64,000 nt of DNA from a candidate division WOR-3 bacterium. GTDB taxonomy: Bacteria > Hydrothermota > 32-111. The stretch spans positions 63,855 to 127,854 of the forward strand of contig JBDRZY010000006.1 of assembly GCA_039804205.1 (NCBI GenBank), written 5' to 3'. The notes under the pieces were generated by a model. That model worked only from the letters and a program-made list of their open reading frames with translations. It was not told where the DNA came from and made no database searches. The first letter of the stretch is position 1. Every line of letters begins with the position of its first letter. A program made the position numbers and the translations under genes. Shown in pieces: positions 4,201 to 27,872 of the stretch.

Positions 4201-6715
4201 GGATCCCATCATTGTTTTTATCCTCAGTTTGTAAAATACCATCTGGACCAGCCAGAGTTTTATCCTTTCTTCTTCTGACCATATCTTCAGGAATATTTTT
4301 ACCAACCTCTAAAACAACGTTACCTTCATCTCCCTTAACCCAGATTTCCAAAAACATCATATCCGTAAGATCAATTCCTGTTCTTGAAACAAGTTGGTTC
4401 AAAGAGATGAATGTGTTCGTTGAGGAAACAGAGTTATCCATAAAGATTTTCATAACTGAAACATCTTTTGTTTTTTCTACATCAGGTAAGAGTGAATTTA
4501 TATTACCACCAAGTTCAATCGTGTTATACCAATAATACTTGTAAGATAGATTGTCTGGATCAAAACCAAAAGGCAGAGAACCGAAAACCCATGATTTCCT
4601 GTCTATGGAAAGATCATTCGAAACAATAACCGATTCCATATTTTCGATCGATGCTTTTTTAGCACTGTTATTCTCAGGTTTAGAAAGAGCCATTTTGGAA
4701 ACAAGTGAAAACTTTGATGGAGAAGTTGTATTATAGAATGGTAAAAAGTTGGCAAGATCACTTAAAGAATAAAAATTTTCATTGTATGAAACATCGCCCT
4801 CGCCAAGAAGTATCTCCTGTGGCTCTTCTCCTATTTTTGGATAATCTTCAAGATTGTATGAAAGAGTGTTGTACAACCAGTTCGAATTCGCAAAAAGTTT
4901 ATCGGAAAGTTGATAATCGAAATGCATTCCTAAAAGATTTTTAGATGTTAAAGAAAGAAATGGCGAGTACTGATAATCTATTGTTATCTGGGCGTTTGGG
5001 GAATTCACAATATCTGTTAAAAAATTCACTATTCCATATTCGTAATCGATAGTGTAATCCTTATCACGTGTTAATGTGATACCGTTAACTCTGACAACCT
5101 CGGAACCTTCGATGATGTTAAAAGTACCCAGTGAATAAACTGATTGACTACCACTATATTTTATATCAAGATAATATTTTCTGCCAACGGAAGTCCCACT
5201 TTCCATTGTCCAGTAGATAATAGAGTCCTTATCGATCAAACTATCAGAATCAAAAGGATAAAGAGATGGGAAAATCAAAAAACCTCTATTGAAATCAACA
5301 TAGTTTAGATCAACCTTTCCATCATTGTTTTGATCAAGTCCCAAAAGTTTAAGATAGGTTGTATTCCCCTGTAACTCATAATCCTCTCCTGATCCTGTAT
5401 TAACTTTTTTGATCGAAAGTTTAAAACTTTCTGGAATGATGTTTCTAGAGTTGAAAGAATAAACATTTTTCATCATATATTCCCAGGTTGGAGAGAAAGG
5501 ATAGTCATCCTTCTGTTTTATTATTTTTAAAACAAGTGTATCGACATATCCAAAATTTCCAACAGTATCGATTCGACCATTAGACCTTTTTACAATATAA
5601 GATATTCCAATCACTTCTGAAGATGCGAGAGTAGAAGTGAATTCGATGAACTGTCCATTTTTATAATAGATATAGTCCTTATCTTCACCCGGGATCATCA
5701 AAGAAAAATTACCAACAAAAAAAAGTGAATCCATGGTTGACGGATTAAAATATAGTTTCGCTGGCAACACTCCCTCTTCATCGTTATTTGTACCTATACC
5801 ATCATCCTTGTATACATTCAGAAGTATTATAGAATCTGAAGATGAAAGACCTAAAAGAAAAAACCTGTTTTTTTGATAATCAATATCGTATATTCTTATA
5901 GAATCAACACTCGTATTTCCTACAAACTGTTTCTGTTCATTCTCTCCCGATTCTTTTGATGCAACAAAAGTAAAATTCAACCCTCCAAGTTGTCCGCTTC
6001 CCTTTATTCCAAAAAGTCCTTTGTGTTGAGGCGTTCCACCGATAAGTTTTATTCCAGGTAAACTCAAAGAAACATCTCCCGCCTGAACGGTTTGCAGGAT
6101 ATCATCATCAAGCCCTTTGTACTCGAGAACAACAGTGTTGTCAGATTTTTTTTCAGTTTCACTGTTATGCTTCAGATTGACCTTTATCCTGTCTCCAACA
6201 CTTCCGGTCACATTGACTATAAGTTGTTGTTTCAGCATAAACTCAGGAATCCATGAAATGTTCGCTGTTCCCTTTTCAATAGCTGTAAGATCAAAAGTTT
6301 TACTACCTGAATAATCTATCCTTTCTGAACCTTCCACAACAAGTTTTCCACCTTCACCGAAAAATGATTTCATCTTTCCAAAAGTTATAGGAATATCTAT
6401 ATCACCTATGAGTCCAGTTGAAGTTGAAGTTCTAAACGATTCTTTGAAATTCGCAGTCAACATTTCTCTAATCATCTTTTCATTTTTTTGTGAAAAATAG
6501 AGGTCTTTTGTTTTTATCGAATCAATTCCCAAAAAATAATCTTTATAAAAACTTTTGAAGATAACAAGGTTGTTCACCTCGTCGAATTCAATCGTCTGTT
6601 TATAACCATCAAACTCTCTTTTGTATTCAAGAAATTTTTTTTCAAGATTTAAGGTTTCTCGAGAGAAAATAGATATGAAGAATATAACGGGGATAAGAAT
6701 TTTTAAAACTTTCAT
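1295..6715 (-). CDS. sprA: Giant outer-membrane beta-barrel protein, SprA/Sov-like type IX secretion translocon (1806 aa)
   Basis: The protein has a signal peptide (MKVLKILIPVIFFISIFS). The N-terminal block LIVNVTGSVGDRIKVNLKHNSE...VVLEYKG..DDILQTVQAGDVSLSLPG resembles the conserved SprA N-terminal signature as I recall it. There is an acidic NNDG/DxD-rich middle region and the motif NWKLYRIPI...IKYARLYWYG. A long N/S/Y/F-rich stretch of alternating beta-strands ends in a terminal Phe (TLFRF), the typical OMP beta-signal. Confidence 0.6.
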   Translation of the reverse strand: MKVLKILIPVIFFISIFSRETLNLEKKFLEYKREFDGYKQTIEFDEVNNLVIFKSFYKDYFLGIDSIKTKDLYFSQKNEKMIREMLTANFKESFRTSTSTGLIGDIDIPITFGKMKSFFGEGGKLVVEGSERIDYSGSKTFDLTAIEKGTANISWIPEFMLKQQLIVNVTGSVGDRIKVNLKHNSETEKKSDNTVVLEYKGLDDDILQTVQAGDVSLSLPGIKLIGGTPQHKGLFGIKGSGQLGGLNFTFVASKESGENEQKQFVGNTSVDSIRIYDIDYQKNRFFLLGLSSSDSIILLNVYKDDGIGTNNDEEGVLPAKLYFNPSTMDSLFFVGNFSLMIPGEDKDYIYYKNGQFIEFTSTLASSEVIGISYIVKRSNGRIDTVGNFGYVDTLVLKIIKQKDDYPFSPTWEYMMKNVYSFNSRNIIPESFKLSIKKVNTGSGEDYELQGNTTYLKLLGLDQNNDGKVDLNYVDFNRGFLIFPSLYPFDSDSLIDKDSIIYWTMESGTSVGRKYYLDIKYSGSQSVYSLGTFNIIEGSEVVRVNGITLTRDKDYTIDYEYGIVNFLTDIVNSPNAQITIDYQYSPFLSLTSKNLLGMHFDYQLSDKLFANSNWLYNTLSYNLEDYPKIGEEPQEILLGEGDVSYNENFYSLSDLANFLPFYNTTSPSKFSLVSKMALSKPENNSAKKASIENMESVIVSNDLSIDRKSWVFGSLPFGFDPDNLSYKYYWYNTIELGGNINSLLPDVEKTKDVSVMKIFMDNSVSSTNTFISLNQLVSRTGIDLTDMMFLEIWVKGDEGNVVLEVGKNIPEDMVRRRKDKTLAGPDGILQTEDKNNDGILDVNEDTGLDGVYGSDSLNVPGDDGNDDYYYSLSQQYYYDKINGTENNNLFDTEDLDRDGSLNTRDDYYRFTINLTSDENLVYKNPITNWKLYRIPIQSNTVEKIGNPDLKYIKYARLYWYGVSGNDTLSIYQISMITNKWKSKIVNGDSSKFFFGAKNNQTDPDYYPPYNPGVDFNGKPKREQSMVIYCNNFYHNESGKVYKVLPVRESYERYRTLQFYIRSTNSDSFNFYLKFGGDSLNYYFIKYTPTSKWDTVTVFLDSLVNLKKNNLDKSFAEKGLYGFFGSPSLTNIGYLELYVQNIANSAESTEIWVDDIMVIDPKNEMGYAGDISSNLEIPELLNISFLTGVRNPYFKTISDKYGSGNFNSNYRFSFSFNGEKLLPEFFGIVSPLTFSYSKSTNRPVYYVGSDYTLTNEEIKRFSNFTTSSNFSASIKRSNSFTNRFLHYIFDIPSLSYTNSSSNNLTYNRTDSTKTNSVSSNFGYNFNVMPLKFFRNFEFYYFPSNITYNLSYSTNETKSFLLGENGFVNVGENFLKNFNRSFSTRYRIFRSLEINYSESKIHDLLQKDNEFLGFLGKKVGENNSFNINYNPVFIRYLTHSLNISTNYSERNNRNLYSLDSLFSTDLSQNTRLSLNGNFDYAKMLKLVTQIRDESKDSLALTGSPHWIAIHLEKFLNNFSGLNYSFSTNRTLSFNYVKGNPPFLFKIGISDSLPYDYFSSYSQIRNNNNYSYSFSSGFSIWNFDVRGSYSFSFNRSAQNQNIIKDTNKKWPNISLTLSNIEQIKPLEKFFRYLNATTSVSKGEIFSFMNDTILNRNSNSLDFYPLIGLSGATFFNLNFNYNFNYTNSLSNSYSGIELSRENKTYSNTLSFNYAFSSPSGINLPIINKVLKFKSTLNTGIDFSYTKVQDLDITNNNLVEDKILYDIKPRADYNFTSNVSGGINFTFSRSEDRKRGDKRQLISLGFWTLFRF

Positions 6716-7552: not shown

Positions 7553-10354
7553 CTATTGACTGATTAAAGTTTCAACTTTTTCTTCATCCAAAACTTTATC
7601 ATTTTTATCAACACCACGGGGGTATTTATCACTTAAAGTTTCGAGTCCTTTTCTTTTACCCCACATTTTTACCTCTTCCCTTATCTGCTTTATCTGCTCA
7701 TCTCCGGGTTTTATGACATCCCAAAGGTCAAGCAATCTGCTTAAAATTTCAGGTTCTTCTTTTTCCATATAGAAGAATCCTATGACATTTCCGAGAAGTT
7801 GTAAATCGGTTTTCAAAGTTTGAACTATCTTTTCGAAATTCGCAATATCGCCCTGTTTATAATAAACCTTCAAAAGACCTGATAAAAACATCGCATTTTT
7901 TGGATTAGTATCAACATATTTTTTGAACAACTCTAAAGATTTTTGATAATCGTTCAATTTTAAATATATCTGTCCAAGAAGAAAATCGAATATCTCCGTC
8001 TTTTCCCCCTTTTTATCAATTGATTTACCATATATTATTTCTTTCTCCGCCTCTTCGTATTTCCCTAAATCCATAAGAAATCTTGTGATCTGCAAAGTAA
8101 CAGCGTTTCTGTCATAAACATAAAATTTACGACCTTCTCTTAAATACTCGATCGATTTCTCAAGGGAATCTATCTGTGCATAATAGATTCCAAGTTGCAA
8201 AAATCCAGCAGCGTAGTTCGTCATTATTCTATCGATGTTATCATCCTTAACAATTTTTTCATCAAGTATGTATTTGTATTTATAAACGTTATAGATGTTA
8301 TGTTTTGTTCTTTCAACATCTATCAGGTAAGGATATTTCTTTGCTTCTTCAGTAGAAACTATTCTGTATGCTAAACCTTCAAGGACAGAATTCTGTTTGT
8401 AAGCCATCCTCGCATCATCTGAAACTGTAACTGAAAAATAGATCTCAATTGAATCAGGTTTATACTTATCAAGAACCAGAAATTTAAACAAATCTGTACT
8501 CGCATAAAGGATATCTTTTGTGCATTTTATTCCAGAAGTTGTACATATCATATTTCTTATCGCGAGATCTCTAACATAGAGTATTTCTCCATTCGGTATC
8601 CTGACAGGCATAAGATTATCTATCTCTTCATCTGTAAAACTGATCGGAACTCCAAAAGATTTCATCTGTTTTATATACCATGGAGTATTTAAAAGTGAAA
8701 GGTTACATACCATAACACCTTTTCGATTTTTTCTATCTAATGTTCTATAATTTCTAACAACCTGTTCAAACCAGAGTGGATATGTATCATTATCACCGTT
8801 TGTAAAGATAACAGCGTTATCCCTTGGTGTATCAAGCATATTTTTCGCATATTCATCTGCAATCCAGTTGTTTCTTCTGTTTGCATTTGATCTCATATTT
8901 GCAAAAATTGGTGAAATCGATATTACAACAATAAAAACGGTCAAAAATATTGAAGCGAAGTTAATACGATTTTTATTGTTCTTTGCTCTTTCAAAAAATT
9001 CTCTCATTCCAAAAGCGAAGAAAAAGAAAAATAAAAAATAGGAAGGTCCATAGAAATAATCCCTTTCTCTGACCTCTTTTTCAACATGTAAAGGATTCGG
9101 ATCTGACGGAGAATATTTCAGATTTAGATATGTTATGAGGCCAAAAGAAAGAAGAAGTAAAACTATACCGATGAGTATGAAAGTTTTTTTCTCGTTTTTG
9201 TAATGAATATATATACCATAAAAACCTATTATCGTGGTTATTGAAACTATAAGCGAAGATAAAATCTTTAACAAAATTGATGGGTGTAAAACTTCTTCAG
9301 GCCTATATACTGGAGAGAATTGCCATGTATAATACCTGATAAAGACCTTGACTTGCTCTATGTATGCTGGTATCGTTCCTATACCGTAATCTGTCTTTCT
9401 TGGTAAAAGATTCATCGGTCCATACTGCTTCCTGTTGAAAACATCCCAGAGATCTCTCAATGTCACTGGTGCTGCTATATTTATATAGGGGTTTTGTTTC
9501 GCTCTGATAATCAAAACAGCGTAAGTTGATACAGCGATTAAAATCAAAAAAGTATAAATTCCAAGATAAGAAAAAACCTTTTTATAATTTACTTTTCTTT
9601 GTGAATTGAAAGAATCGATCATCACAACAGTAACAATCGACAGAAATAAGCCAACTATTAGCAGAACCATATTTTCTTTTGTAACAGCAAGATAAAGAAA
9701 TGAAAACAAAACACCAAAAGATATGAGAGAAACTGAAAGATCATAATATTTTTTCCATGCAACAACAATAAAAAATATTAGAGCAGCAGGTAAAGCGAGA
9801 AGTGAAAGCATATGTATACCTATAGAAAGCAAAGTTATATAGATAACAAGCATCACATACCTATCATCATTTTTGTCATCGATTTTATCCCACCATACAA
9901 GACACAAAAAAATTGAGATCAGAATCATCAAAACAGCAGGGTTATAAACTTCAGCTTCAACAGCAGATTGCCAGAATGAATATATAAAAGAAGCAAAAAG
10001 AGAAGAGAAAAAAGCGGAAATATAATTCCATTTTTCATCTTTGAAAGTTTCTACTCTCCTGAAAACCTTTAACATTATAAAGAAAAGAAAAACCGATGCG
10101 AGTGCACTCGAAATTGAGGCAAAAAGGTTTACCCTTAAAGCGACCTCTTCAACAAAGAAAAGTATTCTTATGATCATGTTTCCAAGAAGTATCATCAAAG
10201 GAGTTCCTGGAGGATGGGGAACACCTAAAGAATACGAACAGGAAATAAATTCTCCACAATCCCAGAATGGAAGTGTTGGAGTAACAGTATAAAGATAAAC
10301 TGAAAATACGATCACGAAGAGTAAAATTCCCAACAGATAATCAAACTTTTTCAT
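7553..10354 (-). CDS. DUF2723 (TMEM260 / glycosyltransferase-117-like) polytopic membrane protein with C-terminal TPR repeats
   Basis: The N-terminal motif TPTLPFWDCGEFISCSYSLGVPHPPGTPL is characteristic of DUF2723. There are roughly 12 hydrophobic segments. The C-terminal third has TPR-like repeats (YYAQIDSLEKSIEYL, LGQIYLKLNDYQKSLELFKKY). Confidence 0.7.
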   Translation of the reverse strand: MKKFDYLLGILLFVIVFSVYLYTVTPTLPFWDCGEFISCSYSLGVPHPPGTPLMILLGNMIIRILFFVEEVALRVNLFASISSALASVFLFFIMLKVFRRVETFKDEKWNYISAFFSSLFASFIYSFWQSAVEAEVYNPAVLMILISIFLCLVWWDKIDDKNDDRYVMLVIYITLLSIGIHMLSLLALPAALIFFIVVAWKKYYDLSVSLISFGVLFSFLYLAVTKENMVLLIVGLFLSIVTVVMIDSFNSQRKVNYKKVFSYLGIYTFLILIAVSTYAVLIIRAKQNPYINIAAPVTLRDLWDVFNRKQYGPMNLLPRKTDYGIGTIPAYIEQVKVFIRYYTWQFSPVYRPEEVLHPSILLKILSSLIVSITTIIGFYGIYIHYKNEKKTFILIGIVLLLLSFGLITYLNLKYSPSDPNPLHVEKEVRERDYFYGPSYFLFFFFFAFGMREFFERAKNNKNRINFASIFLTVFIVVISISPIFANMRSNANRRNNWIADEYAKNMLDTPRDNAVIFTNGDNDTYPLWFEQVVRNYRTLDRKNRKGVMVCNLSLLNTPWYIKQMKSFGVPISFTDEEIDNLMPVRIPNGEILYVRDLAIRNMICTTSGIKCTKDILYASTDLFKFLVLDKYKPDSIEIYFSVTVSDDARMAYKQNSVLEGLAYRIVSTEEAKKYPYLIDVERTKHNIYNVYKYKYILDEKIVKDDNIDRIMTNYAAGFLQLGIYYAQIDSLEKSIEYLREGRKFYVYDRNAVTLQITRFLMDLGKYEEAEKEIIYGKSIDKKGEKTEIFDFLLGQIYLKLNDYQKSLELFKKYVDTNPKNAMFLSGLLKVYYKQGDIANFEKIVQTLKTDLQLLGNVIGFFYMEKEEPEILSRLLDLWDVIKPGDEQIKQIREEVKMWGKRKGLETLSDKYPRGVDKNDKVLDEEKVETLISQ

Positions 10355-17544: not shown

Positions 17545-18720
17545 TCAAAAAATTATTCTGTTCCCTTTTATCTTCCTATCACTCACATAAAGATCTCTAA
17601 GTGTTAAAATTGATGATTCTCCATATTTGTTTCTTATCATTTCAATATGTTCTTTCAATCTTTCTTGTTTATCAAAAACTTCATTAAACGATAACTCTTG
17701 ATATATTCCTCTATCTCTTATTCCTCCTATCGATATTCCGACCAATCTCACAGGTAAAGTCAAATTTATTTTTTCGAATATTTTTTTTGTTTCCTCAAAA
17801 ATATCTTTCCAATCGTGGATGTATCTTTCAAGTTTTTTTTGCTTTGTAAATGTCTGGAAATTTGAATATCTCACAGTTAAAGTTATTCTATTCCCCTCAA
17901 AAAAATCTTCAAGCAACCTTGTTTCTATATGTTTTGATATCAAGGAAATATAAGATAGAATCTTTTCTTTATCAAAAGTATCCTCTGAAAACGTGTGTGT
18001 GTTACCAACAGATTTTGCCGTATCGATTTTTCTATAAATATCATCACTTATTTTTAAATTCGTTAATCCTTTCAAAAAATAGGCATAATGTTTAAAATTT
18101 TTTTTCAAAACAGAAAAAGGAATCTCATCGATCTGTCTAACATAAAATATACCATACGATTTCAATTTTTTTTCCATCTTTCTTCCTATCCCCGGGACCT
18201 TCTCTATCTCCTTATCTTTTATGTATTTCAAAGGGTCATCAACCACAAAAAAACCATCTGGCTTATTTTCATCGGACGCTATTTTCGCAACGATTTTTTT
18301 CGTCGATATACCACACGATGCTGTGATTTTCAGTTTTTCTTTTATTATTTTTTTTATCATAAGTGATTCTATGATCAGATCATCTTTTTTCGGGGAACAA
18401 AAAAAACATTCATCTATGGAATATGGAGACACATTACCTGCTATATCCTGAACCGTTTGAAAAACTTCTTTTGATATCGATAAATATTTTTCGATATCTG
18501 GCTTTATAACTACCAGATATGGACATTTTGATAATGCCTCATAAACAGGCATCCCTGCCTTTATACCATATTCTCTGGCTTTATAGGACGCAGAAGTTAT
18601 AACGGTTCTTGAATGTTCACTTCCACCAACAGCAACAGGCATATCCCTATAATAGGGTCTTGATGCGATCTCAACCGAAGCAAAAAAAGAATCGAGATCA
18701 AGATGAGCCCACCATATCAT
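17545..18720 (-). CDS. dinB: Y-family DNA polymerase IV (DinB type, catalytic residues present)
   Basis: Motifs AHLDLDSFFASVE and YSIDECFF (catalytic D..DE) are present. I place the start at ATG 18720 (MIWWAHLDLD), which forms an ATGA overlap with the stop of the upstream 80-aa ORF. The track's 18753 start adds an unlikely Cys-rich extension. Confidence 0.9.
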   Translation of the reverse strand: MIWWAHLDLDSFFASVEIASRPYYRDMPVAVGGSEHSRTVITSASYKAREYGIKAGMPVYEALSKCPYLVVIKPDIEKYLSISKEVFQTVQDIAGNVSPYSIDECFFCSPKKDDLIIESLMIKKIIKEKLKITASCGISTKKIVAKIASDENKPDGFFVVDDPLKYIKDKEIEKVPGIGRKMEKKLKSYGIFYVRQIDEIPFSVLKKNFKHYAYFLKGLTNLKISDDIYRKIDTAKSVGNTHTFSEDTFDKEKILSYISLISKHIETRLLEDFFEGNRITLTVRYSNFQTFTKQKKLERYIHDWKDIFEETKKIFEKINLTLPVRLVGISIGGIRDRGIYQELSFNEVFDKQERLKEHIEMIRNKYGESSILTLRDLYVSDRKIKGNRIIF

Positions 18721-18959
18721 AAGATCGCACTCTCCACATCTACAATGTACCATCTGTTCGTTGAAAGTGAATAAACAAGATGATAATAGAAAGAACCTGA
18801 TACAGTTGAAAAGTGTATCTTTATTCCATCCTCATCAACAGTTTTCCATGAATAAGTCAACTTCTCTACCTTTATAGTTTTACCTTTCCAGAAAAATGTT
18901 TTTGGAACTATTTTACCTTTTCCAAAGTACGCAAGAACAAAAATTTGCTCTCTGTTCAT
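18717..18959 (-). CDS. Small uncharacterised protein (80 aa) between lexA and dinB
   Basis: The ORF is flanked on both sides by verified ATGA start/stop overlaps. The sequence is Trp/Tyr-rich and looks all-beta (FFWKGKTIKVEKLTYSWKTVDEDGIKIHFSTVSGSFYYHLVYSLSTNRWYIVDVE). I could not assign a family with confidence. Confidence 0.6.
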   Translation of the reverse strand: MNREQIFVLAYFGKGKIVPKTFFWKGKTIKVEKLTYSWKTVDEDGIKIHFSTVSGSFYYHLVYSLSTNRWYIVDVESAIL

Positions 18960-19546
18960 AACTTTTTCAAAACTCCAACAACTTTTCCAAAAGGTTGAAA
19001 ATCATCATCATTCTTTATCTCTATGAGAGGATATTTCGGATTTTCCGCTTTTAAATAAATTTTGCCTTTTTCAACGATAAACCTTTTCAATGTGAATTCA
19101 CCGTTTAAAAAAGCAACTATTATATCCTTATTTTTCACATTTTCACTTTTTTCAACAAGAACCATATCCCCATCATATATCATGGCACCTTCCATACTGT
19201 CACCTTTAACTTTAAGAAAAAACTTTCTTTCAACACCATCTGGAAAAAGAAAACTATCTTCGATATTTTCTTCAGAGATTACAGGTTTTCCCGCAGATAT
19301 ATTTCCTAAAACAAAGATTTTTTCCATTTTGAAATGTTTTTTTATTCTTATTCCCCTTGATAGACCTTTCAACCTTTCAATATATCCTTTCTTTTCAAGA
19401 TTCATAAGATGAACAAAAATACCTTTTGTGCTTTTTTTCTGTAAACCAGAACATATCTCTCTGACAGTTGGAGGATAACCATTTTTTTTATTGTAAGAGT
19501 TTATGAACTCCAGAACCTCTTTTTCTTTTTCACTCAAAAAATCCAT
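18956..19546 (-). CDS. lexA: LexA repressor (SOS regulator, S24 peptidase)
   Basis: It has a winged-helix N-terminus (GYPPTVREI) and an A-G cleavage site (NISAGKPV). The catalytic Ser is in KGDSMEGA and the Lys in FTLKRF. The track start at 19552 is GTG. The ATG at 19546 is preceded by AGGAG with a 5-nt spacer, so I use it. Confidence 0.9.
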   Translation of the reverse strand: MDFLSEKEKEVLEFINSYNKKNGYPPTVREICSGLQKKSTKGIFVHLMNLEKKGYIERLKGLSRGIRIKKHFKMEKIFVLGNISAGKPVISEENIEDSFLFPDGVERKFFLKVKGDSMEGAMIYDGDMVLVEKSENVKNKDIIVAFLNGEFTLKRFIVEKGKIYLKAENPKYPLIEIKNDDDFQPFGKVVGVLKKL

Positions 19547-19557
19547 AAACACTCCTA

Positions 19558-20767: not shown

Positions 20768-21190
20768 ATGGTCAGAAAAGGATTCACAATGATAGAAACA
20801 CTTGTTGTGATAGTTATTATAGGGATGATTCTTGGTTTTGCAATTCCTCGATTCAATTCAAGACAGGCAAAGTTTAACAGTACTGTTAACAACATCATTG
20901 ATCAGTTGAACATGGCAAGACAGGAGGCTGCAACCAAAAACATTACAACAACATTTTATCTCGCAAAAGATTCTTTCAAATATGGAAACACAGTTTACAG
21001 ATTTCCTACAAGAGTTTTCACTTACGATTTTATAAACGAACAGGACTTTTCGTTTGACTCACCCATAGAGTTTATGCCAGGAGGGAAAACCGATGCTGTA
21101 TATGCTATACAGGTTATAGATTCAGCGACTTCAAGACAGAGTATGATTTACATTTTTCCATCAGGATATATTTTAAAAGGTAGCGAATAG
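20768..21190 (+). CDS. Minor (pseudo)pilin, FimT/FimU/GspH-like
   Basis: It has the class III signal and N-methylation motif MVRKGFTMIETLVVIVIIGMILGFAIP. Length is 140 aa. A following helix (NNIIDQLNMARQEA) is typical of GspH/FimT. Confidence 0.8.
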   Translation: MVRKGFTMIETLVVIVIIGMILGFAIPRFNSRQAKFNSTVNNIIDQLNMARQEAATKNITTTFYLAKDSFKYGNTVYRFPTRVFTYDFINEQDFSFDSPIEFMPGGKTDAVYAIQVIDSATSRQSMIYIFPSGYILKGSE

Positions 21191-21585: not shown

Positions 21586-24165
21586 ATGAAAAACAAAGGT
21601 TTCACTTTGCTTGAACTCCTTCTGGCAATCACAATATTTTCAATAATAGTTGGTGCTGCCATCACAGTGTTTGTGAACTCTCAAAATTCAAAACAAAAAG
21701 TTGATCTTATGACACAGGCACAACAATCAGCGAGAATCGCAGTCGATTATATGATAAGGGATATAAGGGCTGCTGGTTACAGTATCGATGTTGATGAAAC
21801 ATCAACATCACCACAGAGAAGATTGGTTTACGCTTCACCTTATGAACTGATTTTCAATGCAAATCTTTTGCCTTATCAGGATACACCTGATAATCCACAG
21901 GAACCGAGAGCGATGAAGGTTACCTCATCTCTTGATGAAAGACCAGCACATTATTATCCACCAATTCAATATCAAACAGGTGCTGAAACAGTTGTTTATA
22001 CACTCGACTGGAACAACGATGGTATCATAAATCAGGATGATAGGGATAACTCCCCTGCTTCTTTAACAAAGAATCCAAACGATTACTGTCTTGTCAAAAG
22101 AGTTTATGGACTTTACGACTCAGGTTTGAACATTGAATATATCCTGCCACCAGGTTCTCCATTTGACTGGTCGAACCATCAGGTAGTCTCAATCGTTTCA
22201 GGTCCTGATAGGTATCCAGCACAAACAACAGGAACACCGATCTTCCATTACTGGTATGATGATGATGGAGATCCCACAACTCCGTTAAAACTCTATGGTG
22301 ATGCAAACAACGATGGAGAACTCAGCCAAAATGAGGCAAACGCATTAACACCGATAACCGATTATGAAATGCTCGATAAGATTCAAATTGTTACAGTTAA
22401 AGTAACTGGAGTATCCCAGACACCCTTTAGAGGAAAATATTTAACTTCCTCTGTACAAACGGATGTTAATATAACAAGAAATACATCAATAGATGTTTTT
22501 GTTGTTAAAGGCCATGTTTATGTTGATGAAAATAAAAATGGAGATTACGATTCTGGAGAAGATGGTATTGAGGGGATGAAAGTAAAACTTTCAACAGGAG
22601 AAGTCGCTCTTACAGATGAAAATGGAACCTGGGTTTATGCTGTTGTTCCTGGAGTTTACACTGCTTCGATAACACCACAACTTTTCTATAGACCAACTAC
22701 TCCATCAAATTTTGATTTCACGATTACGAACTCATCAAGAGATTTTAGAAATGAGGATGATTATAAAAAATTCTTTGGAATGGAGGAGACACCTGCTGCT
22801 AAAGTTTCAGGAATCGTGTTCGAAGATCTCAACGCTGATGGTTTCTGGCAAAAGGATTCAGAACCAGGTGTTCCAGATTTACAGGTTGCTGTATGGAACA
22901 ATAGCACAAAATCATACTCATCACCTGTCGATTCAGTAGGTATTTTTCACCTTGATGTAAACGCTGGAGAGTCATTATACATCTGGGTAACACCTAATGA
23001 TAGTTTCGGTCCAAGTAATGTTGATCTTAACGATCAACTTAGTTTCACACAGGGCACCCCTCTTCTTTCAATACTTTCATCTTCCGCTGTTTTGGGTTAT
23101 CTTGATGAAGGAGAGGAAGGTTATATAGCATTTGGAATGTTAAAAGCAACCGGCACACGACCAACTTTAAGAGTTTTAGTTCCAAACGGTGGAGAATTAT
23201 GGCACACGGGCTCTTCCTACGATATAAAAGTTTACGCAACACCAAACGATTCAGGAGAAGTAATAAAGAAATTGATTTACTATTATTCTGTTGATGGTGG
23301 AGATAACTGGAGATACATAGATGAACAATCTTATCCAACACCATCTTCAGGAGATACATTATATACATACTACTGGAATATTCCTGATTCTGTTCAGGGT
23401 AGTCAGATATGCCTTGTAAAAGTGATATGTATAGATGAGGGAAACTGGTCTGTTTACGATATATCTGATAACTATTTTATGATCGTTAACCAGGCAGGTT
23501 ACACATACCTTTTTTTAACAAACGAATATGTTGATTCACTGTATGATGATACTCTATATCTTTACGCTTTTGGTGGAACTTATTATTCCGGTGTTGGAAC
23601 ATCAGGGCAATATCCACTTCCAAGATATATGAACACAGTAAACTCAAGAGTGATGGGTATTGCAGGTGATTCGATTGAAACATTCAATGTAATGATCCAT
23701 AAACCATTCAAAACACAAATTGGTATGAAAGCAGAATGGATAACAAAAAAAGGTATTCCTTATGCTGATACAATTTATCCCGGTATATGGAGGTTTGTTG
23801 GTTATGGAATGACTTACGATCCAGATGTTACAACAAAACCAAAATATTTTAACATTGAAGTTTACAAAACTGACTCTTTTGGTTCAAGAACTTCAAGAGT
23901 TTTATTATTCTCAACTCTAAACGCTGCAACTTATGATTCTATAAAAAGAACAGGTTCTATCATGAACGATGAGGATGAGTCATCAATGGATATATACATA
24001 AATAGAGGATTCTCGATCTCAAGAGCAGATAGGTTGTATATAAAAGTATACTATTCTGGTATTTTTTCAAATACAGGTGGACCTTCTGGAAGTATATCCC
24101 CAAGGATATGGATGACTTTTGGTGAAACAAGAGGAACAAAACTTTCACTTCCACCTAAAAAGTAA
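21586..24165 (+). CDS. Giant minor-pilin-like protein: PilW/GspJ-like N-terminus fused to adhesin-like domains (859 aa)
   Basis: It begins MKNKGFTLLELLLAITIFSIIVGAAITVF and has the PilW-like helix ARIAVDYMIRDIRAAGY. It carries two 12-residue EF-hand-type loops: DWNNDGIINQDD at 22006-22041 and DANNDGELSQNE at 22300-22335. Two SdrD-B/CnaB-like repeats lie at about 22501-22674 and 22801-22992. An Asp-box SVDGGDNW lies at 23287-23310. Confidence 0.75.
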   Translation: MKNKGFTLLELLLAITIFSIIVGAAITVFVNSQNSKQKVDLMTQAQQSARIAVDYMIRDIRAAGYSIDVDETSTSPQRRLVYASPYELIFNANLLPYQDTPDNPQEPRAMKVTSSLDERPAHYYPPIQYQTGAETVVYTLDWNNDGIINQDDRDNSPASLTKNPNDYCLVKRVYGLYDSGLNIEYILPPGSPFDWSNHQVVSIVSGPDRYPAQTTGTPIFHYWYDDDGDPTTPLKLYGDANNDGELSQNEANALTPITDYEMLDKIQIVTVKVTGVSQTPFRGKYLTSSVQTDVNITRNTSIDVFVVKGHVYVDENKNGDYDSGEDGIEGMKVKLSTGEVALTDENGTWVYAVVPGVYTASITPQLFYRPTTPSNFDFTITNSSRDFRNEDDYKKFFGMEETPAAKVSGIVFEDLNADGFWQKDSEPGVPDLQVAVWNNSTKSYSSPVDSVGIFHLDVNAGESLYIWVTPNDSFGPSNVDLNDQLSFTQGTPLLSILSSSAVLGYLDEGEEGYIAFGMLKATGTRPTLRVLVPNGGELWHTGSSYDIKVYATPNDSGEVIKKLIYYYSVDGGDNWRYIDEQSYPTPSSGDTLYTYYWNIPDSVQGSQICLVKVICIDEGNWSVYDISDNYFMIVNQAGYTYLFLTNEYVDSLYDDTLYLYAFGGTYYSGVGTSGQYPLPRYMNTVNSRVMGIAGDSIETFNVMIHKPFKTQIGMKAEWITKKGIPYADTIYPGIWRFVGYGMTYDPDVTTKPKYFNIEVYKTDSFGSRTSRVLLFSTLNAATYDSIKRTGSIMNDEDESSMDIYINRGFSISRADRLYIKVYYSGIFSNTGGPSGSISPRIWMTFGETRGTKLSLPPKK

Positions 24166-24176
24166 AGGAGAATTGT

Positions 24177-25670
24177 ATGGAAAAGAAAGGAATCGCACTC
24201 GTTACAACAATAATGATCCTTTTAATGTTATCACTTCTTGCAGCTGGAATGTTTTTCACAATAAAAAATGAAACAGCGATATCAATCTATCAGGCACAAT
24301 CGGTTCAGGTTATATCTGTTGCTGAATCAGCACTTGATGAGATCAAACACAGGATGAATCTTCCACCTTCAGATCCAGCATTTATCGGAGATACTTCTGT
24401 TCCTTTGAATCCAAACTGGACAACAGTGATACTTTTTGAGGATCATTCTGATCAGGATGATTCAACAGCAGGAATTTTTTATAAAACTTCACTTCAAACT
24501 AATCTTGATGATTTTGATCCTGACAACCCTGAGATGGATTATACAACAAAAGAATATGAAGAAGGTGTTTCTTTAACGATAAGACATAAAACAAATGAGG
24601 ATAAAACTCAAATCTATTATTATGATTCAAAAACTGAAAAACAATTCCTGGGACCTCCATCACTTGTTGTTGAATACCCTCCAGTTGAACTGGTTGAAAT
24701 AACAGCAAGGTCTGGCAAAGCTGTTAAAAAGATTCTCGCAGAGATTTCAAAACAGGAAGTTAACATAAAAGTTCAATCAGCATTGTCATCTTCAACAATC
24801 GCCTGGCAGATGACAGGTAACACTGATGTTTATGTTTGTGGACATAACCATCTTTTATCAACACCATACAATGTCTGTCCTTTTGATCCAACAACCTCTG
24901 CTCCACATCAACCAGGATCTTCAGCCCCTGCTGTTTCATGCTGGGCAGTTCAATCGGGAACAGGATCATATGCAACAGGAAAGCCACTTTACCATGTTGA
25001 GATAGATTCAGTTGATTCACATCCTGGAAAGAACCATTACTTCTATAATTATTATAAACACACATGGAACATAAACCGTCTTGAATATGATCCATACTGC
25101 ACAAGAGCCGGATGTCTTGCAGGTATTGCAACAACATCTTCAAGTGTTGGTAACTATGGAGCAACAAAATCACACATTTTTGGAAATCCTGATATCATAA
25201 TTAAATACGATCTTGTGATACCTGAACTCTACGAAGTACTTGGATACTCTTCTGAGGCAGAGATGAATGAAGCGATAAACTGGGAGACATCACTTGTGAG
25301 TGATCCTGTGAATATCAGATATTTTAAGTTAGGTTCAGGACCAGGTTCAGTAATAGAAATACCAACAATCAACTCTCAAACAGTTGGAATCATCTGGATC
25401 AACGGTAGTGTCAGATTAAGGGCTGGATCAAGGAGTTTTCAGCACAAAGGACTTTTATATATTCAGGAAAATCTTTTGGAAACATCAACACCTGGTGGTA
25501 ACTACGATTTCTGGGTTTTGGGTGCCATGATGGTCAAGGGTTATATCGATGATATACATACATCTGGTAACAAGCGAATGTTCTTTATGTATTCAAAAGA
25601 TGCTCTGTCGCAGACAGTTGAACAGGATCTGAGATTTTACAAACTAATAGGCTGGAAAGAGGTTTATTGA
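24177..25670 (+). CDS. PilX/GspK-like pilus assembly protein with large C-terminal domain (497 aa)
   Basis: The N-terminus MEKKGIALVTTIMILLMLSLLAAGMFF is PilX_N/GspK-type: a hydrophobic helix with no Glu at +5. About 450 further residues contain six Cys and match nothing I recognise. Confidence 0.65.
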   Translation: MEKKGIALVTTIMILLMLSLLAAGMFFTIKNETAISIYQAQSVQVISVAESALDEIKHRMNLPPSDPAFIGDTSVPLNPNWTTVILFEDHSDQDDSTAGIFYKTSLQTNLDDFDPDNPEMDYTTKEYEEGVSLTIRHKTNEDKTQIYYYDSKTEKQFLGPPSLVVEYPPVELVEITARSGKAVKKILAEISKQEVNIKVQSALSSSTIAWQMTGNTDVYVCGHNHLLSTPYNVCPFDPTTSAPHQPGSSAPAVSCWAVQSGTGSYATGKPLYHVEIDSVDSHPGKNHYFYNYYKHTWNINRLEYDPYCTRAGCLAGIATTSSSVGNYGATKSHIFGNPDIIIKYDLVIPELYEVLGYSSEAEMNEAINWETSLVSDPVNIRYFKLGSGPGSVIEIPTINSQTVGIIWINGSVRLRAGSRSFQHKGLLYIQENLLETSTPGGNYDFWVLGAMMVKGYIDDIHTSGNKRMFFMYSKDALSQTVEQDLRFYKLIGWKEVY

Positions 25671-26191
25671 TGCATAACTATTTACAGGATGAATTGAACC
25701 TTTACGGTGAATTTATAGAAGAGGTTGATATAGCAAAATTTATAATACAGGCACATTCAGGGCCTTTCCATATTTTAAGGGAAAGGCCCGATATAAAATT
25801 TATAGGTGAAAAAATAAAAAATGAGTATCTTTCAAACCATCAGATGATAAGAACAAATGAAATTTTTCAGCAGATTTCTGATAAGTGCACCCGTGTTCAT
25901 ATTACACCTTTCCTGAGAAAGTATAAATCAGCAAAACTTTTGGCTGAACTTTTTTTACAAAATTTTGATTTTTATTCAGATGAGTATATACTTCCAATAG
26001 ATGAGAACATTATAAATTTAATTCTGTCACAGTTACATAACTATAACACTGACATAATAAAAAATCTTTTGATAAAATACAACAAAGAAGGTTTTGTGCC
26101 ACATCATTCTGAAAGATACAAAAACAATGTCCATCCTTCCTACCTTGTATTTTTGAATGAAGTTATTAAACAGAACATAACGATTTTATGA
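25667..26191 (+). CDS. Hypothetical cytoplasmic protein (174 aa)
   Basis: Its start overlaps the pilX-like stop by 4 nt. It has no TM segment or signal peptide. No family was recognised (C-terminal GFVPHHSERYKNNVHPSYLVF). Confidence 0.5.
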   Translation: MMHNYLQDELNLYGEFIEEVDIAKFIIQAHSGPFHILRERPDIKFIGEKIKNEYLSNHQMIRTNEIFQQISDKCTRVHITPFLRKYKSAKLLAELFLQNFDFYSDEYILPIDENIINLILSQLHNYNTDIIKNLLIKYNKEGFVPHHSERYKNNVHPSYLVFLNEVIKQNITIL

Positions 26192-26979
26192 AAAATAAAA
26201 AATTCCATATTTTATTTTTAATATTTTTACTTTTTCTTGTCACCATTTATTTAACCTATACAAAATATCAGAATAAAACAATCTTTTCAATCGATGATAA
26301 AAGGATTTCCTTTGAGTATTTCTTAAAATACAAAGAGTTTTATAAAAAGATAAATTCTCTTGATCACGTTCTTGATTGTAATATAGTAGATGAGATAGTT
26401 AAAAACTATATTTTCTTCAAAATTGCAAAAGAGGAAGGTATCGACGTTTCAGATAAAAGTATAGATTATCATTTTAACATGCATAAGGATGATTTAAAAA
26501 TCGATTTTGAAAAAATTAAAAAAAGTTTTAATGAGGAAGAAATTTTTGAATTTTTTGAAAAACCATTCGTTGTAAAAAATCTTCTCATAGAAAAGATTAA
26601 ATATGATTCAACAGGTATACAGAAAGAGAGGTATATGTATTCAAAAACGATTTTCAAAGGATGGGATGGAAAAAGTGTTGATAAAAATTTTTTAAACGAA
26701 TTTACCGAATATGTTGAACAGCATCTGGAAAAAGAGAACATAAACGGATTTGAAACAGGTAAAAAAAACTTTTCTGAAGATGATGGTTTTTATTATGTTT
26801 TTTCTTCTAACAAAAATGTACTATTTGGATATAGAGTTTACAAAATTCCATCGGATGAATATTTAGAAAAAAAATACAAGAAAAAATTTATATTAAAATT
26901 TTTGGATGATAAAGATAAGAGGGCATTTTTATTGGTTAACAAAGACAAACTCCTTGACACAATCGTTGAAGTCAGATGA
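26188..26979 (+). CDS. Hypothetical membrane-anchored protein (263 aa), possibly SurA-N/PpiD-like chaperone fold
   Basis: It overlaps the upstream gene by 4 nt. It has a single N-terminal TM helix (FHILFLIFLLFLVTIYLTY). The rest is Lys/Glu-rich and helical, loosely resembling SurA N-terminal domains; this is weak. Confidence 0.5.
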   Translation: MKNKKFHILFLIFLLFLVTIYLTYTKYQNKTIFSIDDKRISFEYFLKYKEFYKKINSLDHVLDCNIVDEIVKNYIFFKIAKEEGIDVSDKSIDYHFNMHKDDLKIDFEKIKKSFNEEEIFEFFEKPFVVKNLLIEKIKYDSTGIQKERYMYSKTIFKGWDGKSVDKNFLNEFTEYVEQHLEKENINGFETGKKNFSEDDGFYYVFSSNKNVLFGYRVYKIPSDEYLEKKYKKKFILKFLDDKDKRAFLLVNKDKLLDTIVEVR

Positions 26980-27872
26980 AAGATATCTTTTTCACCGATG
27001 AATTTATAGAATTTTTCCAGCTTTCAAAAATTGAGACTGATGCTTTTCTTTATCCATTTTTAATGGTTGATTTCAGCGGCCATAAATCTATTTCCTCCTT
27101 AGGTTACCAGGGTATCCTGATCAAGAAAAATTATTCAGATAACGAACTCAAAGAATTTTATGCTGAATTAAAAAATTTTAGAAAAAAAAATCAAATCGTA
27201 TGTGAATTCATAAGGTATAATCCATTTTTAAACAATATACTCCAGCTCGATCAACGAAACGAATCATCAACATTTTTCGTAATAGAAACCGATAAAAATC
27301 CTTCTTCATATTTTGAAAACTTACCATCAAGAACAAGGTATTCGATTAAAAAAGCAAAAGAAAAAATTACAGTAAAAAGTGATAAAACCCTAGGGATTCT
27401 CAAAGGGACTTTAAAATATAAAAATGAATTTTTCTATGATGAGGGAAGTTTGAAGCGTCTGCTCGATGCACCCTTCAGTATAAAATTTTCAGCATTATTT
27501 AACGATGAAGAAGTTGCTTCAAGTTTATTCTTTTGTTCAGATGATACATCATATTACATCGCTAACTTTTCGACAGAGGAAGGTAAAAAAAACAATGCAA
27601 ATATATTTTTAATCTATGAATTTTACAAATTTTGCTTCGAAAGAAAAATCAAATACATCGGACTTGGTGGTGGATTTAATGATAATGACTCTTTATCGTT
27701 TTTCAAAAGTCAATTTTCAACCTATACAACAAAAATTATCCACTCAAAATTGGTGCATGATCAAAAAATCTATAATAAACTTAATGAAAACTTAAAAGAG
27801 AATTATTTCCCACCATACCTTTCAGAAAAAAATCTATTAAAACTTTCCAATAGCTGCAGCAAAAGCGATTGA
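26976..27872 (+). CDS. FemAB-like / GNAT (Acetyltransf_6-type) acyl- or aminoacyl-transferase family protein
   Basis: It overlaps the upstream gene by 4 nt. The C-terminal pattern YYIANFSTEEGKKNNANIFLIYEFYKFCFERKIKYIGLGGG...DSLSFFKSQF fits the FemAB-like/BioF2-like acetyltransferase signature as I recall it. Confidence 0.55.
   Translation: MKDIFFTDEFIEFFQLSKIETDAFLYPFLMVDFSGHKSISSLGYQGILIKKNYSDNELKEFYAELKNFRKKNQIVCEFIRYNPFLNNILQLDQRNESSTFFVIETDKNPSSYFENLPSRTRYSIKKAKEKITVKSDKTLGILKGTLKYKNEFFYDEGSLKRLLDAPFSIKFSALFNDEEVASSLFFCSDDTSYYIANFSTEEGKKNNANIFLIYEFYKFCFERKIKYIGLGGGFNDNDSLSFFKSQFSTYTTKIIHSKLVHDQKIYNKLNENLKENYFPPYLSEKNLLKLSNSCSKSD

Follow-up and report, generated by a model that had tools for sequence, protein, structure and literature searches.

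Introduction

Modular pilins occur widely. The survey of 2021 by which the term was defined counts 264 architectures, its dataset containing IPR012902-IPR033764 (four proteins) and IPR012902-IPR033764-IPR013517 (three proteins) (Raynaud et al. 2021, PMC8179133); the bulk of the subunit has been argued, for this kind of pilin as a whole, to restrict it to the filament tip (PMC8179133). The assembly of type IV filaments is licensed by PilY1/PilC, the last ~10 residues of which are added as a β-strand to the sheet of PilK/PilX, whereas in filaments lacking PilY1, namely, those of type II secretion (T2SS), of Com, of Tad, and of the competence pili of Vibrio and Thermus, this strand is supplied in cis by the PilK homologue, often enlarged by an insertion (PMC13533445). 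Calcium sites of minor subunits have been reported for GspK/XcpX, the K-class subunit (PMC6211770), and are not known to have been reported for the J-class one. Here, we analyze an 859-amino-acid (aa) protein of a candidate division WOR-3 bacterium, encoded in a 64,000-nucleotide stretch of its DNA (GenBank assembly GCA_039804205.1, contig JBDRZY010000006.1, positions 63,855 to 127,854, forward strand), hereafter the window, to which all coordinates refer. We assign a probability of about 0.6 to the reading that this protein is a modular pilin of the PilW/GspJ (PilJ) class, acting in a tip/priming complex of four minor pilins that belongs to the type IV filament of a diderm bacterium. An earlier note, made from the sequence of the same DNA, had suggested a minor pilin fused to an adhesin and a calcium sensor, possibly a substitute for PilY1.

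A normal-sized pilin module with grafted cargo

The protein is encoded by an open reading frame (ORF) at 21586..24165 on the plus strand, which starts with ATG, includes the stop codon in these coordinates, and is preceded, at a distance of about 8 nt, by an AAGGAG ribosome-binding site. The ORF and the motifs KGFTLLELL (residues 4–12), DWNNDGIINQDD (141–152), DANNDGELSQNE (239–250), and SVDGGDNW (568–575) lie at exactly the positions given in the earlier note, and its remark that the protein is far above the usual PilW/GspJ size is confirmed as well (859 aa compared with typical ~190–360 aa). The Pfam families N_methyl (31.4 bits, cut-off 21.2) and SdrD_B (42.1 bits for the whole protein, in two stretches, cut-off 29.7) match above their thresholds. 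The AlphaFold2 (AF2) model of the whole protein, with a predicted local distance difference test score (pLDDT) of 75.8, comprises a helix at residues 8–62, a β-rich head extending to about residue 295, three successive β-sandwiches, and a β-rich last domain. A PDB sequence search with the whole protein returned only the generic pilin helix and insignificant EF-hand matches (myosin light chains), and Foldseek with the whole model listed nothing but Ig-like multi-domain proteins, giving no information on the head.

We read residues 1–299 of this protein as a self-contained PilW-type pilin of ordinary size, to which the cargo has been joined at one fixed point, because complete stand-alone pilins end at this very boundary and the same module heads other cargos. 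A profile search with the N-terminal module yielded stand-alone pilins of 275–296 aa that align over 93–97% of residues 1–300, stop at the same R-N that closes the head, and retain both of the calcium-type loops described below; the source of one of them is a metagenome-assembled genome (MAG) labelled Candidatus Limnocylindrales, and the loci of these short pilins contain just one further small pilin gene, being uninformative on adjacency of pilY1. In proteins of ~980–1080 aa (P0021, P0106), the module is followed by several SdrD_B domains and a C-terminal FG-GAP/VCBS region. We take the IPR012902-IPR033764-IPR013517 architecture to match these FG-GAP cousins and IPR012902-IPR033764 to stand for N_methyl plus the SdrD B domain, IPR033764 presumably being the latter. 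Finally, the module heads an 1117-aa Nitrospira protein with a long Thr/Ser/Ala-rich C-terminal region, repeat-like by eye. Thus, the cargos seen on the shared module are an SdrD-B stalk with a jelly-roll, SdrD-B domains with an FG-GAP/VCBS region, and a long repeat-like region.

The Nitrospira protein is encoded in a parallel operon of a MAG (locus L018, 2237–8556), where a GspH-like protein of 184 aa, a PilV-like protein of 196 aa, the PilW-like 1117-aa protein, and a PilX-like protein of 595 aa follow one another; hence, the same carrier bears a different cargo there. The head of the 1117-aa protein contains the same calcium loops and an additional D-I-N-G-N-G loop insertion.

At the N-terminus, the predicted processing site MKNKG|FTLLE places Glu at mature position 5, and F6, L8, and E10 are invariant in the orthologue alignments. 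The helix at residues 8–62, which qualifies as the long α1-helix of a pilin with its hydrophobic first half, is modelled with pLDDT of ~80, and the profile alignment (hhalign) with Amphritea PilW has a probability of 98% (E 2.8e-13), covering residues 2–67 only. The earlier assignment to the PilW/GspJ class is therefore supported by the operon position, the conserved E5, and this alignment. The TIGR01711 gspJ model scores 23.8 bits on the 859-aa protein against a cut-off of 64.85, and distant relatives of the N-terminal module carry the Pfam domain PilW (PF16074) or the name PilW in their source. Conservation is highest in the head, with 56% identity where the whole protein has ~44%, and the AF2 model places eight β-strands in it between residues 80 and 295.

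EF-hand-like loops of the head

The two loops of the head had been described as canonical EF-hand loops added to a pilin. Their positions and the calcium-type pattern hold, both loops fitting a 12-residue scheme in which positions 1, 3, 5, and 12 carry oxygen ligands, position 6 is Gly, and position 8 is hydrophobic; however, they are EF-hand-like (DxDxDG-type) rather than canonical, and they are not an addition, as they belong to the 299-aa module and are present in stand-alone pilins. To assess chance occurrence, we used the pattern D-x-[DNS]-x-[DNSG]-G-x-[ILVM]-x3-[DE], which is expected 0.011 times per shuffled sequence and occurred twice in none of 20,000 shuffles (0/20,000). Since shuffled sequences never give two loops, these are not a by-product of the Asp/Asn/Gly-rich composition.

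Conservation of the loops in orthologues, which the earlier note had left to be checked, is evident at the key positions. In an alignment of 15 sequences, reaching down to 32% identity and into other phyla, D141, D145, G146, and D152, corresponding to positions 1, 5, 6, and 12 of loop 1, are invariant, and so are G238, D239, and E250, corresponding to positions −1, 1, and 12 of loop 2. A more distant relative of 399 aa has neither loop.

In the AF2 model, exiting helices at residues 150–154 and 248–252 start from loop position 10, as in EF-hands, and there is no entering helix, with a strand (residues 134–139) preceding loop 1 and coil preceding loop 2. The Pfam models EF-hand_8 (E 0.061) and EF-hand_1 (E 0.42) match exactly on the loops, far under their cut-offs, and neither loop appears to fit the PROSITE EF-hand pattern. 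A canonical EF-hand domain was rejected, due to the absence of the entering helix and the sub-threshold Pfam matches.

The occurrence of the loops both in stand-alone pilins and beside other cargos argues for a structural Ca2+ site of a PilW subfamily, and not for a fused sensor of the PilY1 type. Structural calcium sites are also a feature of SdrD B domains.

Proposed stalk and C-terminal domain

The cargo starts with two sandwiches of the SdrD-B type, carrying the loops DENKNGDYDSGE and DLNADGFWQKDS, respectively. Of the two SdrD-B-type repeats noted earlier, the first, taken alone (residues 303–402), exceeds the Pfam cut-off (E 2.7e-8, 34.4 bits), but the second, taken alone (residues 403–521), falls below it (E 0.0074, 16.9 bits), with only its N-terminal half matched. 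The second sandwich is the most variable domain, having 30% identity to mid-distance orthologues, and it forms, together with the C-terminal domain, the most variable part of the protein. In the Foldseek comparison of the whole model with the PDB, the crystal structure of SdrD A2-A3-B1-B2 ranks first (E 1.2e-8, probability 1.00), with the low TM-score expected for a multi-domain query.

In the next domain, residues S568, D570, G572, and W575 of the Asp-box are invariant among orthologues, and the BNR model matches weakly (E 0.14). The Asp-box reported earlier is indeed present but lies in a β-sandwich of ~110 aa and not in a BNR propeller; it is a structural hairpin of this sandwich rather than evidence for a sialidase-type propeller. 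A propeller of the sialidase/sortilin type was rejected, the Asp-box being single, the BNR match weak, and the host domain a sandwich. According to an exhaustive profile search, sandwiches of this type are repeated in tandem up to ~47 times in giant proteins, one of which (P0052) has Pfam matches to Reelin_subrepeat-B (4.7e-31) and BNR. The 28,044 library matches at E<=0.001 are explained by the promiscuity of the domains, and this number does not count relatives of the pilin. Among these matches, P0044–P0051 and similar proteins are giants of 4,000–7,400 aa, with up to ~47 tandem Asp-box sandwiches or SdrD_B-type domains.

The ~270 residues that could not be placed earlier are now placed, as a 224-aa jelly-roll (residues 636–859) that is modelled confidently when taken alone (pLDDT 86.5, predicted TM-score 0.85). 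No Pfam family matches this region even at E 10, and a profile search of a large protein collection returned fragments of the same family only. In the PDB, the model is matched best by the jelly-roll at the C-terminus of CocE/NonD hydrolases (E 1.3e-5, TMq 0.51) and next by the C1q/TNF and CBM22 folds. The best matches among predicted viral structures (BFVD; E ~1e-10, TMq 0.53–0.59, root-mean-square deviation 4–7 Å) are large proteins of uncultured phages annotated as peptidase S74, collagen repeat, or tail protein, a make-up characteristic of tail fibres. The fold is thus predicted, by comparison of models, to be closest to domains of phage tail-fibre-like proteins. The jelly-roll is the only basic domain of the protein, with pI 9.0 (+3.8 at pH 7) compared with 4.1–4.3 for the others.

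Minor-pilin operon, orthologues, and the absence of pilY1 from the locus

The gene is the third of four tightly packed pilin genes, each with its own GGAG site. The order GspH-like, PilV-like, 859 aa, PilX/GspK-like is that of the canonical fimU-pilV-pilW-pilX-pilY1-pilE cluster, as seen on an Amphritea chromosome, but no pilY1 comes after it here. This order is kept throughout the orthologous loci, even at 42% identity, as are the radical-SAM gene lying upstream and the three overlapping genes lying downstream, and the four-pilin core is also kept in the loci of more distant cousins. The best NCBIfam matches of the 140-aa product of the first gene are GspH (7e-10) and ComGD (1e-9), both under the cut-off, and the best match of the 124-aa product of the second gene is type_IV_pilV (E 3.9e-10, 40.4 bits, cut-off 52.2).

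Full-length orthologues of the 859-aa protein form ~20 clusters (30–95% identity, 827–859 aa), and their sources, wherever named, are MAGs of the candidate divisions WOR-3 or TA06, apart from a few other labels. Three orthologous and fully syntenic loci (L005, L007, L008) have been deposited as Acetofilamentum sp. (a genus of Bacteroidaceae), uncultured Bacteroidales, and uncultured Gammaproteobacteria. We take these labels to be binning or labelling errors, since the loci are syntenic with those of the WOR-3 type. A literature search for pili in WOR-3 found nothing relevant.

The pilY1 gene is absent from the 64-kb window, as the earlier note had stated, and from the neighborhood of every orthologous locus examined. 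The 859-aa protein itself has no Pfam match to PilC/PilY1, and its AF2 model contains no β-propeller. Hence, in the idea of a PilY1 substitute, the role of a tip adhesin remains plausible, but the calcium loops are part of the pilin module, and nothing resembles the β-propeller of PilY1.

A more suitable candidate for the licensing function is the 497-aa product of the fourth gene. It is about three times as large as Amphritea PilX, shows, at equal distance, higher conservation than the 859-aa protein (48–55% against 42–45% identity), and has at its extreme C-terminus (..GWKE..) a near-invariant W493 and an invariant E495. Due to the enlargement, the better conservation, and the invariant C-terminal end, we suggest, by analogy with the known systems, that this PilX/GspK-like protein probably supplies the licensing β-strand in cis. 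As enlarged PilK homologues donate the strand in cis elsewhere, the absence of pilY1 is not anomalous, and the 859-aa protein would need to replace PilY1 only as an adhesin. The 497-aa protein also contains a nearly invariant C-G-H-N-H motif (G222, H223, H225) and conserved Cys/Gly motifs (G312, C313, G316; G336-N337-P338-D) that match no known family; judging by their sequence, the conserved motifs could mark a metal or catalytic site.

Proposed function and alternative explanations

Taking all this into account, we propose the following scheme. A prepilin peptidase would cut the precursor at G5|F6, and the pilin module would insert via its α1-helix beside the GspH/FimU-like, PilV-like, and 497-aa PilX/GspK-like products. 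Calcium would most likely fill the two head loops and the SdrD-B sites as a structural ion, stiffening the head and the stalk (compare GspK/XcpX, GspG, and SdrD B domains). The cargo, grafted onto the last strand of the module, consists of two SdrD-B-type sandwiches, the Asp-box sandwich, and the distal basic jelly-roll; the sandwiches would form a calcium-stiffened stalk of ~10–15 nm and the jelly-roll a ligand-binding end beyond the tip. Its bulk would restrict the 859-aa subunit to the filament tip, where it would act as an adhesin, and the licensing strand of the PilK sheet would be given in cis by the 497-aa homologue.

Several observations weigh against this scheme. A PDB search with the profile of the N-terminal module matches the pilin helix only, and neither this search nor hhalign detects anything pilin-like past residue 67, so that the pilin fold suggested for the head rests on the pattern of secondary structure in the AF2 model; Pfam PilW (PF16074) and T2SSJ do not match the 859-aa protein itself. 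Some orthologues (P0005, P0016, P0018, P0020) have lost Gly6 of a loop or the whole of loop 1. The structural matches of the jelly-roll are moderate (TM 0.5–0.6), the best of them compare one prediction with another, and they name no ligand. The 64-kb window contains no genes for the filament machinery (pilB/C/M-Q/T), a major pilin, or a prepilin peptidase, and the lack of the machinery and major pilin genes means that it does not indicate the type of filament. A search of sequencing runs for the operon gave zero runs and, hence, no evidence of expression.

The alternatives differ in the function of the cargo and in the fate of the four pilins. Were the 859-aa protein a strict substitute for PilY1, its calcium loops would switch extension and retraction, and its C-terminus (...KLSLPPK) would donate a strand to PilX/PilK in trans. 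The absence of pilY1 from the window and from the orthologous and cousin loci agrees with this, as do the conservation of the loops, the near-invariant L855 and invariant P856 at the very C-terminus, and the C-terminal FG-GAP/VCBS region of the cousins, which is probably propeller-like and loosely recalls PilY1. However, the loops are situated in the pilin head rather than in the cargo and recur in stand-alone pilins of 275 aa, the β-propeller is missing, the last strand is folded with high confidence into the jelly-roll itself (in a single-chain model), and the 497-aa neighbor has an invariant C-terminus of its own, an arrangement described for systems without the adhesin (PMC13533445); we consider this explanation unlikely. 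It is quite improbable that the four genes encode minor pseudopilins GspH-I-J-K of an endopilus, similar to that of type II secretion or to Hps, with the large J subunit engaging a substrate or the secretin: a 560-aa extension of four adhesin-type domains is hard to fit on a periplasmic piston, the gspC-G, L, or M genes do not occur nearby, the second gene scores best as PilV, and the helix region has its distant relatives among PilW (PF16074) proteins. Against these facts stand NCBIfam matches to GspH, GspJ, GspK, and the cyanobacterial pseudopilin HpsC, all of them sub-threshold and N-terminal only, the name "type II secretion system protein" of one fragment in the database, and the H-I-J-K order, which is common to the T2SS and type IVa pili (PMC13533445).

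The charge of the jelly-roll, the sole basic part of a strongly acidic protein, brings to mind a competence (DNA-uptake) pilus, with this domain as the DNA receptor at the tip, in the role of Thermus ComZ, Neisseria ComP, or ComGF; such pili often have no PilY1 (PMC13533445), and weak NCBIfam matches to ComGD, ComGE, and ComGF were observed. Still, the domain has a low net charge, neither Foldseek against the PDB nor Pfam revealed a DNA-binding fold or motif, the Com-type matches are confined to the generic N-terminus, and SdrD-B stalks stiffened by calcium and terminal jelly-rolls are typically features of adhesins and of the receptor-binding proteins of phages, so this version is as improbable as the endopilus. 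Pilin-like proteins outside filaments are known, and the protein might never be polymerized, its class III signal peptide merely anchoring a surface or periplasmic adhesin in the inner membrane, with which the lack of machinery genes in the window would agree. However, the gene lies in a strictly conserved four-gene operon of core minor pilins, E5 is conserved, and in a diderm cell the inner-membrane anchor could not expose an adhesin; we regard such an outcome as very improbable.

An extension of the modular-pilin reading to a whole subfamily is much more doubtful than the reading itself and rather unlikely. In this extension, a PilW/PilJ subfamily of several phyla (WOR-3/TA06, Nitrospirota, a Limnocylindrales-labelled MAG, and unlabelled MAGs) would have a calcium-loaded head and swap its cargos at ~299 R-N, so that the J-class pilin, and not a protein of the PilY1 type, would be the tip adhesin, with ambient Ca2+ coupled by the two EF-hand-like sites to folding or licensing of the tip complex, and the tail-fibre-like end in the small-genome WOR-3 lineage might bind a partner cell or a specific polymer.

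Feature coordinates and other genes of the window

Table 1. Features of the 859-aa protein and of its operon (window coordinates). Functional names of domains and sites are predictions.
Feature	Coordinates	Strand	Basis or remark
GspH/FimU-class minor pilin, 140 aa, operon gene 1	20768..21190	+	N_methyl 25.7 bits; synteny kept throughout the orthologous loci
PilV/GspI-class minor pilin, 124 aa	21199..21573	+	N_methyl 28.5 bits; syntenic
Modular PilW/GspJ-class minor pilin (favored reading)	21586..24165	+	859 aa, 96 kDa, pI 4.6
Leader peptide of class III, MKNKG; prepilin peptidase predicted to cut after G5	21586..21600	+	Sequence read directly
α1-helix of the mature pilin, residues 6–62, with PilW-like QQxARxAxDxxxRDxRxxGY signature	21601..21771	+	AF2, hhalign
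Pilin head, residues 63–299, β-rich, acidic (pI 4.3), ends ...V-x-I-T-R-N	21772..22482	+	AF2, per-domain identities, stand-alone pilins
EF-hand-like loop 1, DWNNDGIINQDD, residues 141–152	22006..22041	+	Sub-threshold EF-hand_8 match
EF-hand-like loop 2, DANNDGELSQNE, residues 239–250, after invariant G238	22300..22335	+	Sub-threshold EF-hand_1 match
SdrD-B-type β-sandwich 1, residues 303–402, with DENKNGDYDSGE calcium-type loop	22492..22791	+	Pfam SdrD_B
Divergent SdrD-B-like β-sandwich 2, residues 403–521, with DLNADGFWQKDS loop	22792..23148	+	AF2 strands
β-Sandwich, residues 525–635, with PNGGE motif and single Asp-box SVDGGDNW (nt 23287–23310)	23158..23490	+	AF2, alignment
Family-specific basic jelly-roll, residues 636–859, ends in conserved ...L-P-P-K	23491..24162	+	AF2 model
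PilX/GspK-class minor pilin-like protein, 497 aa, without E5	24177..25670	+	Weak PilX_N (E 0.0028), GspK (E 0.0023)
Three co-directional genes, 174/263/298 aa, start/stop overlaps of 4 nt	25667..27872	+	Junctions, synteny

The three genes downstream of the pilins are probably co-transcribed, and their membership of the pilus system is uncertain; their synteny is retained down to ~43% identity. The 263-aa product has a hydrophobic N-terminal segment and weak SurA_N-like Pfam matches, and the 298-aa product matches FemAB above the cut-off (29.4 bits) and GNAT below it.

Other large ORFs of the window encode SprA-like, TMEM260-like glycosyltransferase, FtsH, FtsK, MutS, BipA, RecJ, and other proteins, none of them PilY1-like. 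The ORF of 1806 aa (1295–6715, minus strand) has no Pfam match at E<=0.001 and matches the solved structure of SprA, the translocon of the type IX secretion system (E 3e-18, residues 512–702); it probably encodes a divergent, unusually short SprA and was rejected as a hidden PilY1 on the basis of this match. The SprA-like translocon implies a diderm envelope and a type IX secretion system. The 933-aa protein (7553–10354, minus strand) combines a TMEM260-like protein O-mannosyltransferase domain (E 1.5e-41) with C-terminal TPR repeats and is a possible glycosyltransferase of envelope proteins. A small SOS-type cassette at 17545–19552 on the minus strand comprises genes for a LexA-like repressor (198 aa) and for a Y-family polymerase with IMS domains, with an ORF of 80 aa between them in the list, and is divergent from the run of radical-SAM and pilin genes. 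A scan of the 64-kb window against Rfam gave no matches, and a scan for promoters and terminators gave no informative signal in this AT-rich DNA (G+C ~32%).

Comparison with known systems

Descriptions already exist for modular pilins, for calcium sites of minor pilins, and for PilY1-less filaments, and the current ideas about them are not overturned here. Our analysis adds the PilW/PilJ class of the carrier, the exact boundary of the module, the conservation of the head loops across phyla, the fold of the end domain, and the suggestion of licensing by the K-class protein. If correct, it provides a clean example of how type IV filaments gain binding functions, with adhesin cassettes exchanged at one junction on a J-class carrier, and a concrete expressible candidate adhesin for the uncultured WOR-3 bacteria (residues 636–859, or 300–859 with the stalk); it also predicts a new structural calcium site in heads of the PilW class, which is testable.

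The closest described proteins are the modular pilins, such as PilB (vWA module) and PilC (lectin module) of Streptococcus sanguinis, which similarly bear a C-terminal non-pilus module on a small pilin and are predicted to be tip adhesins. Here, in contrast, the carrier is a 299-aa core minor pilin of the PilW/GspJ class from a diderm, with calcium-type loops of its own, and the cargo consists of four domains (~560 aa), ending in a family-specific jelly-roll that is absent from domain databases; the protein is known from its sequence and models. With PilW/GspJ/XcpW/PilJ it shares the third place in the H-I-J-K operon, E5, and the α1 signature (98%), whereas its head has no detectable sequence similarity to them past residue 67, and the thresholds of PF16074 and TIGR01711 are not reached. 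Domain 1 of the stalk passes the Pfam threshold and, like the calcium-dependent CnaB-type stalk of Staphylococcus aureus SdrD B, has D-x-N-x-[DN]-G loops, SdrD being also the top structural match; in contrast to SdrD, there are only two copies, the second one divergent, and they are carried by a pilin rather than by an LPXTG-anchored MSCRAMM.

PilY1/PilC resembles the 859-aa protein in its large size, the probable role of a tip adhesin, the EF-hand-like calcium motif, and the association with the same set of minor pilins. However, PilY1 is a non-pilin with a C-terminal β-propeller, held by its last strand, which is donated to PilK (PMC13533445), whereas the 859-aa protein is a pilin without a propeller and has its calcium loops in the head. 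A very large tip subunit in a type IV filament without PilY1 has precedents in Thermus ComZ, Caulobacter CpaL/TadG, and Vibrio MshQ. CpaL is an analogue of PilK, and MshQ is a PilY1-like strand donor (PMC13533445), while ComZ, we infer, is the enlarged PilK homologue of the Thermus competence pilus cited there. As CpaL and probably ComZ act on the PilK side, their better counterpart here is the PilX-like 497-aa neighbor and not the J-class 859-aa protein; thus, the ComZ precedent invoked earlier for the latter fits, according to our reading of the published data (PMC13533445, PMC6561018), the K-class subunit encoded next to it.

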